Origin: Trichoplax sp. H2
Lineage: Eukaryota
Length of the DNA stretch: 64,000 bases
Assembly (NCBI GenBank): GCA_003344405.1
Contig: NOWV01000101.1
Span: 1 to 64,000, forward strand
Reading direction: 5' to 3'
Shown in pieces: positions 60,954-63,900 of this stretch (the first letter of the stretch is position 1; every line of letters starts with the position of its first letter). The notes beneath the pieces were generated by a model. It ran no database searches. It was not told the DNA's origin and saw only the letters and a program-made list of their open reading frames with translations. Position numbers and translations under genes: made by a program.

Positions 60954-63900
60954 ATGGCGGAGAACGTTCGTGTCGCAGTGCGTGTTCGACCATTTATATC
61001 CATTCATTTCTTCACCATTTTCTCCAATTTTTATGTATAGTTAAGACTTTATTCTGTCATAGAAAGTATCTATAAGATAATACCATGAAAGTCTGTAATA
61101 TGACCGTGATTTTAGGCTAAATTCTAACTTATAGTTGTATGGATTAATTTGTTGACTCCAATCAATCTAGGCTGATGACGGTAGGATTTGATAATAGAGC
61201 TTAAAAAGTACCCTGCCGATAGTGGAACTCTCACTTTTAGTCTACTTTTAAGCTTGCTCCGGTAGATTATGCCAATATCGGAATAGAAATATGCATACAT
61301 ACAAAATGAGCTTTTATGCATGTAGTCATGTACCAGCTAATAATTTTGGTAGCGGTAAATGAACCGCGAAGTGTTAATTAAGCGTACTTTAACATAGGAT
61401 ACAAATGCCTTAAACTATAACGTCGATTTTTTTACTGTATATCGCATATTGGCCTTAATATAGATCCAGTCTAAAGTAGATACGATCTGATTACTTTACC
61501 CCATTAGAAACCAAATCGTAATAGACGAGTAATAAAGATAGAGTCATATCCACAACGATTTGTACTGATAATAAGATACATTTAATCATAGATAGACGAA
61601 CGACTAGTAGTTATATTCATTGCATTGTAAAATAAATTGTCGCATAAACATTGTATATAGGCAATATATTACTTAAAAAGCAGATACAATCTAATTATTT
61701 ATGCTATTATAAGCTAGATCACGATATACGAGTATTAGGGGAGAGTTTTATCCATAAATAATCGTACTAACAGTGAGATACTTTTGATGATAATTGGATT
61801 AAAAAATAGTAAAAAATTATTATACTTATTATACTGCGGAAGTGATAGATTCTATTAAAAATATGCTTGTCGTCATGTAATTTTTAAAATTAGATATGAT
61901 CGGATTACTTTACCTTATTATAAACCAATTTACGATATACTGTAGATTATTAAAGAGAGAGTTACAACTACAGCCAACCATAACGATAGTTAGATACACT
62001 TACAATTAGGTTAAAGGCTACTTTAAGTTATATTCATTACGTTGCATAAATAAGCACCGCGTCAAAAATTAATGACGATTAGGTATCTTTAAAATACTTC
62101 CAAATTGTTTATCAAATTGTTTTATAATACTTTTATAATATCTAAATTACTTCTAATACAAGCATTACATCAGAATTATTGTAGGCACCCTATTGCTTCT
62201 ACATTACTTTAATTAACACTGACACAAATATACGAGTAGATAACATTTATTATCGTTTATTACGAATATCGAATAATGAGCGTCTGTCATAAATCATCAA
62301 CTTAGACTTAATTTATCTTAGTATCCATTATATTGTCAACAGCATAGCATATTTATAATCCTTAACTCTGCCTCACAACGAGCGTGAAAATGCTCGGGGT
62401 GCAACTGTTATCATTAACATGATCGACAAGACCACAGAAATTTCCAATCCTGCTGAGAAAAATGAAGAACCAAAACGATTTTCATTCGATTACAGTTACT
62501 GGTCTCACGATGATTTTACCAAACGTGAAAGTGATGGCTATTTAGTACCAGCCTCTCCTCGATATGCTGATCAGGTAATTAGTTAGTGTTTCTGTATCAA
62601 TAAGAAACTATTCTAATGCTAGAAATTACTGGCCAATATAAATACAATACTCTTTCCTGATTTCGAATTCTTCGAGATAAATGTCTTATATATTCTCGAA
62701 TTGGATTAAACAACGCTCCTTATCCTATTTATTTTGTCTAGCTACGTGTATTTAAAGACTTGGGCCAAGGTGTCTTAGATAACGCCTGGAAGGGCTATAA
62801 TTGTTCTCTATTCGCTTATGGGCAAACAGGATCGGGTAAATCATACTCTATGGTTGGCTATGGAGCTAATAAAGGTAATGCACCTATTGTACTTATCAGT
62901 AACCCGTAAGAAATCTTAGCTGATGGTTACGTCTTCAAGAATTGCTATCTTAACTAGTCTTAAATCTAATAATTAACCTAAAAGGGCTAAAATAAATTAT
63001 AAGTAATATATATGGATACGCTAACTCCCAAATTTGATTTTAATTCATGTAGGTATTATACCTGTGGCATGTCAAGAACTATTTAATACCATAAATGAAA
63101 AGAAAAGTGGAGGAGATACGACCGAGTTTGAAGTAATTGTTAATTTATGTCTAATTTTATTGTACTTCAATCTAATTTCTCTTCTATTCTTGTCTTAATT
63201 TAATAGATTAATTTTAGTATGTTAGAAATCTACAATGAACAGGTAAGATTGATTACAATTAAATTAATACATGATAAAACATCTTTTACAGAACACTTTC
63301 TACTGGTTTTTTATACGTCCAAACTTATCATTTCACATAGTCAAAGTAATCCTTATATAATTAAAATTCATTATTTGCCATGACTAACTGTCTGTAGGTA
63401 CGCGATCTACTAAATCCTAAAGGACCAAGTGTGCAGAAAGGGGGTTTAAAAATTCGCCAACATCCCTCGAAAGGTTTCTATGGTAAGATATTGTTCCTAA
63501 TAAAATGTAGTTAAATGAAGCATCACAGGTCGATCTTTTTGGCCACTAAATCTACAACCTAGATTATGCATTTCCTTATTATTACCATATTAATCTTATC
63601 TCTTATTCAAAAAATTTTAAATTTTCTAACATTTTTATTAGTTGAAGAATTGAAGAATGTACCTGTTACTAGTTACAAAGATATTGAAAATAGAATGGAA
63701 GAAGGAACGCGTAATAGAACTATTGCAGCAACTAATATGAATGCAACAAGCAGGTTAATGCTCGTAATACTCAAATCTATTTACTGGAATACGTTGAGGA
63801 CTAACCCAGTTTATAGCTAGTAGATCAATCTATTGATGAAATACCTTCACTTTTTCTTTAATTTAGTCGCGCACATACAATTGTTGCCATTACATTTAAG

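Follow-up and report, generated by a model that had tools for sequence, protein, structure and literature searches.

Kinesin-3 proteins of the KIF28/KLP-6 type (coral, mollusc, echinoderm, amphioxus) are composed of a motor, an FHA and KIF1B-type domains, all of which they have in common with the Trichoplax protein described here. No difference from other KIF28/KLP-6 proteins was apparent at the protein level, and the distinguishing feature of the Trichoplax gene is its first intron. Introns of a similar kind are the human A-type ones (STX6, IPO5, TMEM181, FCHO1/2, SUDS3), which, in the list of PMC8280824, have AT-AC ends, begin with ATATCC and carry TCCTTAAC 11 nt from their end, as in the present case; the intron of human SUDS3 even starts with the same letters, ATATCCATT (PMC8280824). 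They differ in that A at position +7 is rare in human and common in Trichoplax, where the KIF28 intron lies in phase 0. Among the human U12 strings given in the same source, ATATCCA occurs 2 times versus 196 for ATATCCT, and GTATCCA 20 times versus 427 for GTATCCT. A strict RTATCCTT rule for U12 donors is quoted in PMC2846911, and the optimum distance from the branch site to the intron end is given as 11–13 nt (PMC3584512).

Placozoan minor snRNAs have already been published (PMC2655684), and 121 minor plus 193 minor-like introns are given for T. adhaerens in PMC11347168 (Table S4). A CC variant of U6atac ([GU]CCGA), described in PMC2396436 from Trichoplax, cnidarians, a sponge, Acanthamoeba, Physarum, Physcomitrella and oomycetes and termed there difficult to explain, includes a T. 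adhaerens sequence whose 5' end is identical to that of the Trichoplax U6atac studied here. The text of that paper leaves the variant unexplained and placozoan donors unexamined, whereas in the present study these donors were found to be loose at +7/+8. A comparable case is the coevolution of U12 and the branch site in Physarum (bioRxiv 10.1101/2020.10.12.336362), where a change in a minor snRNA is likewise paralleled by a change in an intron signal. The Physarum change at the branch site is compensatory, whereas placozoans combine lost pairing with lost donor constraint, the link between the two being unproven. KIF28 gave no match in the supplements of PMC8280824 (12 of 13 files), PMC6717393 and PMC11347168, and the literature search returned no paper pairing KIF28 with the minor spliceosome. 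No paper linking the CC variant to donor looseness was found by listing, a kind of search that figures, MIDB, intronIC tables and supplements may escape.

Structure of the KIF28 gene and of its first intron

The window (the whole stretch analysed, 64,000 nt of Trichoplax sp. H2 contig NOWV01000101.1) ends within a gene which the initial annotation assigned to KIF28/KLP-6. The assignment holds, as the best matches are named KIF28 and the domains are those listed above; identity to non-placozoan matches is 48–63%. The gene model comprises 30 exons and 29 introns and encodes 977 aa; the AT-AC joint and 15 of the GT-AG type were taken from transcript contigs, and the other joints were placed by hand. 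The public Trichoplax protein P0006 (KIF28P) is equal to the model in 976 of 977 columns, junction included, so that one public model already contains intron 1. In the T. adhaerens model P0001, exon 1 is missing and the protein begins with PHNERE, reading through the intron end, which bears out the expectation that such introns mislead gene finders. The features of this part of the gene are as follows:

60954..60995, + strand: KIF28 coding exon 1, 14 codons, RxRPF at its end (ATG at 60954; N-terminus of P0006 identical)
60996..62376, + strand: U12-type AT-AC intron 1, 1381 nt, phase 0, 29% GC (sequence and junction contig)
60996..61007, + strand: minor 5' splice site ATATCCATTCAT (first letters of the intron, ATATCCATT)
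62321..62329, + strand: internal donor-like GTATCCATT, 56 nt before the intron end (sequence)
62359..62368, + strand: branch site TCCTTAAC(TC) (octamer itself 62359-62366)
62374..62376, + strand: used acceptor CAC (X9 contig 17; 89/89 motif-bearing homologues go on with N)
62377..62379, + strand: possible second in-frame acceptor AAC, which would remove Asn (sequence only)
62377..62574, + strand: exon 2 (transcript contigs, gene model)
62742-62874, + strand: exon 3 (Pfam Kinesin match; GT-AG introns)
63053-63132, + strand: exon 4 (GT-AG introns)
63207-63242, + strand: exon 5 (GT-AG introns)
63398-63482, + strand: exon 6 (GT-AG introns)
63642-63753, + strand: exon 7 (GT-AG introns)
63867-63974, + strand: exon 8 (the gene goes on past the window end)

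As originally proposed, exon 1 ends with CCATTT at 60995, and excision of the 1381-nt, phase 0 intron, which has a U12-type donor and branch site, rebuilds VRVRPF-NERE; VRVRP is presumably the first motor strand of kinesin. ATATCC at 60996 is the RTATCC core of a U12-type donor. The A at +7, correctly noted before, is mismatched to U11 (five pairs and one mismatch), and positions +8 to +12 (TTCAT) are complementary in register to nt 12-8 of U6atac. With this A, the donor departs from the full vertebrate/plant consensus RTATCCTT(T), which is a consensus and no absolute criterion; SUDS3 in the human U12 list has the same variant.

The octamer TCCTTAAC at 62359-62366 is the sole copy in the window on both strands, and the branch site forms nine pairs with the U12 of this genome around one bulged A. 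The motif was thus rightly recognised in the initial annotation, and only its spacing requires correction: the 10 nt once counted to the terminal AC separate it from the intron end, with only 8 nt to the AC. The second A of the motif lies 11 nt from the intron end, within the published optimum range. At the base frequencies of the window, the chance of finding donor hexamer, branch octamer and AC together at the protein-defined junction is ~3e-9. Intron 1 is the longest of the 29, as had been said of the introns then visible, and exceeds the next one 2.8-fold (the remaining 28 have a median of 134 nt and a maximum of 491 nt).

Several alternatives were considered and rejected. None of 16 in-frame GT/GC-AG joins retained both RPF and NERE. 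Use of the second acceptor, AAC (62379), was not seen among the transcript pieces inspected, and the Asn is retained in homologues. As a recursive or nested site, GTATCCATT has no AC or AG directly upstream; it is absent from the paralogue's intron and is probably a chance occurrence. A weak branch-like CTTAAT is present in the same segment (62305-62329), together with an AG at 62320-62321 overlapped by GTATCCATT; this AG would shift the frame, and no sign of its use was observed. A repeat within the intron was dismissed, because its DNA matches only itself in the whole genome (G000), i.e. it is single copy. A hidden RNA was also dismissed after an Rfam gathering scan of the window, which returned only tRNA-Sec.

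This tRNA-Sec gene (60216-60301, - strand, 78.1 bits) is placed head-to-head with KIF28, ~650 nt upstream of its ATG; a single tRNA-Sec has been reported in Trichoplax (PMC2655684). Imperfect repeats of ~100-130 nt, recognised by eye, are located 5' of it (59500-60140). A simple-repeat patch of TACTG/TACAGT (60810-60860), just 5' of exon 1, varies in length between runs and is common to many other contigs.

Transcript evidence for the junction

Transcript data were taken from four runs (X4, X7, X9, X10) of four studies, out of 21 listed, all of them contigs or unitigs, and were mapped on L010 (G000:C14:60501-70500). The predicted RNA junction 60995-62377 was read in contig 17 of X9, a run whose RNA status is a guess (X4 is the sole run recorded as RNA); this contig runs from L010:495 straight to L010:1877. 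Since it is gapless from 60995 to 62377, the CAC acceptor is in use and the Asn is retained. Unitigs of X4 and X7 start or stop at both of these positions, the picture expected of a bubble between spliced and unspliced forms, so that the junction is read directly in one of the four runs and indirectly in two. It is absent from the X10 pieces inspected, which do not span the joint. The spliced X9 contig reaches ~1.47 kb upstream of 60501 (window about 59030-60995) and spans the tRNA-Sec position, an extension which may represent a long 5' region, nascent RNA or DNA bridging.

Contigs containing the unspliced intron were found in all four runs. Their depth over intron 1 (X4, 23.9; X7, 10.6; X9, 6.6; X10, about 10), set beside that over a 399-nt U2 intron of the same gene (X4, 13.8; X7, 9.3; X9, 9.2), gives no measure of retention, since contig depths do not allow different parts of one gene to be ranked. 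The upstream contig of X4 has a depth of 28.1, and DNA or nascent background may therefore account for the intron coverage.

Conservation of the intron position

Comparison with other KIF28 genes, envisaged in the initial annotation as a check, revealed an intron at the same site in a second paralogue and in two metagenome contigs. The second KIF28 gene (G000:C303:80682-79330, - strand; L107/L109) is likewise interrupted after VRVRPF by this AT-AC intron, here 1353 nt long, with the donor ATATCCTTTCAT and T at +7. In its public model, P0110, exon 1 and the beginning of exon 2 are missing. The metagenome locus L071 carries an AT-AC U12-type intron (186 nt, shorter than the neighbouring introns) and L072 a GT-AG U12-type intron (231 nt), both at exactly the same site. 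The metagenome set comprised 31 loci, in 12 of which the match starts at residue 1 or 2 of the query. Of these 12, two have a U12-type intron, eight are uninterrupted (three of the eight may be transcripts, and protist kinesins may be among them) and two are unclassified. The KIF28-like kinesin of locus L093 has an open frame only with TAA/TAG readthrough, as in ciliates.

The motif was present in 89 of the 126 proteins compared, each of which continues with N (89/89). The other 37 include eight read-through models, 21 with a later Met start, four mis-joined, two regex misses and two unclassified. Hence 33 of the 126 start late, read through or are mis-joined at the intron site, although the 21 late starts among them could be caused by any intron type. 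Read-through of the back-translated branch site and/or acceptor was detected in P0001, P0002, P0008, P0044 (Nematostella), P0056 (oyster), P0060 (Capitella), P0088 (Elysia) and P0114 (Paramuricea); these are protein models only, with the DNA deduced by back-translation, and they point indirectly to a same-site intron in seven further broken models.

In a quick, weakly supported tree the Paramuricea protein forms a group (support 99) with the second of the placozoan paralogues, whereas the other proteins cluster with the window gene; L071 falls somewhere within the clade of the latter. This distribution over the two paralogues suggests that the intron is older than the KIF28 duplication. To judge from the sequences compared, it is an ancient minor intron that predates the placozoan-cnidarian-bilaterian split.

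Components of the minor spliceosome

Searches of the genome revealed U11, U12, U4atac and U6atac, all above the Rfam cut-offs (99.2, 97.3, 59.2 and 104.8 bits, respectively), as well as matches to CENATAC/CCDC84, the only minor-spliceosome protein sought. The predicted U4atac/U6atac duplex has an energy of -47.6 kcal/mol, and both the branch-pairing region of U12 and the 5' end of U11 are canonical. The snRNA genes, CENATAC and the U12 branch pairing support the working minor spliceosome that had been postulated from the intron itself.

In place of AAGGAGA, the Rfam consensus, the U6atac has GCCGAGA. In the usual register, nt 14 and 15 of U6atac face donor positions +6 and +5; in this register the CC variant keeps the +4/+5 pairs and loses Watson-Crick pairing at +6, +7 and +8. 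Only one copy in the genome has an intact catalytic 5' part, and its 5' end agrees letter for letter with the T. adhaerens sequence in supplement 3 of PMC2396436. Pattern search of the genome detected no second, canonical U6atac, and no compensating change was found in its U11. Two standard U6 motifs are present, and U6 is canonical. The full U6atac is followed by five tandem 5'-truncated copies (G000:C503:8305-9498, - strand; L001/L002), most of which have an upstream element of their own; these six matches also appear for T. adhaerens in Table S7 of PMC11347168, where they are counted as copies.

Survey of minor donors

Patterns fixing only RTATCC and TCCTTAAC yielded 58 matches in the genome. 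Two patterns gave 30 and 28 matches versus 35 and 30 in controls, and a third (883 versus 614) was not used further. As the matches were no more numerous than the controls, each candidate was judged on its flanks. Flank tests were applied to 29 of the 58 matches (Pfam matched 17 of 54 flanks); in L013 and L014 the donor was moved to an upstream GTATCC, and L034, L046, L058, L066, L067 and L068 were dropped. The 23 further probable U12 introns retained (L013-L064) include five with contiguous matches on both flanks, six with one, and four resting on open frames only. For eight of the 23, the gene name is presumptive, being based on the translated flanks.

Over 24 donors (the window's included), +7 was T in 14, A in eight, C in one and G in one, and +8 was T in 10, equal to the intron background (37% T), in a set selected for a perfect branch site and consisting by construction mostly of introns <240 nt, since the pattern search cannot reach long ones. 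Being found in eight of 24 minor donors, +7A is normal for this genome.

Eighteen gene names were checked in the human U12 list (PMC8280824, supplement file 1), which is score-derived. Fifteen have a human U12 intron with the same ends, phase and flanking codons agreeing by eye (DONSON is the least clear pairing). No entry was found in the list for SRRT, SARAF and NFYB; ARS2-, SARAF- and NF-YB-like genes are part of the retained set. In the 15 position-matched pairs, +7T was observed in 15 human and eight placozoan donors (p=0.016), and TT at +7+8 in 14 and four, respectively (p=0.002). When all 21 human paralogous introns were considered, +7T was present in 20, and PCNX3 had +7A.

Both KIF28 paralogues have TTCAT at +8..+12, where it can pair in register with nt 12-8 of U6atac. 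TCAT at +9..+12 was detected in two of the 24 introns besides the window's (p=0.012; summed matches, p=0.024), but with the paralogue omitted p rises to 0.08, and human FCHO2 also has TCAT. This marginal enrichment hints weakly at compensation by +8..+12 pairing.

Discussion

In all probability, intron 1 is an ancient U12-type AT-AC intron of the KIF28 family, constitutively spliced by the placozoan minor spliceosome. With its boundaries, transcript use, snRNA genes and conserved position observed, we infer the recognition steps, and dependence on U11/U12 with them, from the known pathway. U11/U12 would recognise RTATCC and the branch site jointly, and the choice of the 3' end would depend on how far it lies from the branch A (here 11 nt). 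U6atac would then replace U11, its CC variant pairing only with +4/+5 and, in intron 1, additionally with +8 to +12.

It is extremely unlikely that the intron is a U2-type AT-AC intron, or an artefact of assembly or annotation. U2-type AT-AC introns do exist (24 in five species in a table of PMC1557818), and they are distinguished by a U2-like donor after AT, a pyrimidine tract and the lack of a U12 branch site. Intron 1 has instead an ATATCC donor, a perfect branch site at U12 distance and no long pyrimidine tract; the same signals are carried by the paralogue and by two other organisms, in one of them with GT-AG ends, and the observed transcript junction argues against an artefact. It also appears quite improbable that the intron acts as a rate-limiting regulatory switch, with a weak donor and great length throttling KIF28 output. 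This proposal draws on the 2.8-fold excess in length, the similarly long intron of the paralogue, the unspliced contigs in every run and the published idea of slow U12 splicing (PMC1557818). However, +7A occurs in a third of the donors surveyed (8/24) and the paralogue has +7T, while the homologous introns of L071 and L072 are short, that of L071 even in comparison with its neighbours. Moreover, the contigs of intron 1 are not clearly deeper than those of the U2 intron, and the two long paralogue introns share no similarity (their score is reached by 82 of 100 shuffled sequences). The suggestion of the initial annotation that +7A and length limit expression was consequently not upheld. Under constitutive minor splicing, +7A would be tolerated drift, as in many minor donors of this genome, and no tuned brake, and the length would most likely be that of a first intron adjoining the promoter; against drift alone stand the ~1.35-kb introns of both paralogues, where medians are ~135-145 nt.

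The looseness of the donors could reflect snRNA-intron coevolution, +7/+8 having relaxed since the CC-variant U6atac stopped reading them, a tentative explanation which we rate somewhat below an even chance. It is consistent with the CC variant being the sole intact U6atac in the genome and with the deficit of +7T and +7+8 TT relative to matched human donors, and the canonical 5' end of U11 offers no other source of the change. On the other hand, the U2 donors of the KIF28 gene are also loose (+5G in 10 of 27) despite a canonical U6, and hence the relaxation may be genome-wide. The comparison itself involves a set chosen on a perfect branch site and a score-derived human list that lacks three of the 18 genes and includes PCNX3 with +7A. 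According to PMC2396436, donors of the CC-variant organisms Acanthamoeba and Phytophthora can pair with AAGGA, and one lineage provides one data point. A broader version, which seems rather doubtful, is that in early-branching CC-variant animals the minor spliceosome reads essentially RTATCC and the branch site, the lost +6 to +8 pairs having freed +7/+8 and some introns compensating via +8..+12.

The intron is ordinary in kind, real and ancient. KIF28 thus joins the families that had a minor intron before placozoans, cnidarians and bilaterians separated, and the intron accounts for many KIF28 models without the first strand. The presence of loose placozoan donors beside a CC-variant U6atac makes a question dating from 2008 testable with existing genomes. 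If the broader version is true, the question left open in PMC2396436 would be answered, and scorers trained on human introns would miss part of the minor introns of placozoans, cnidarians and sponges.
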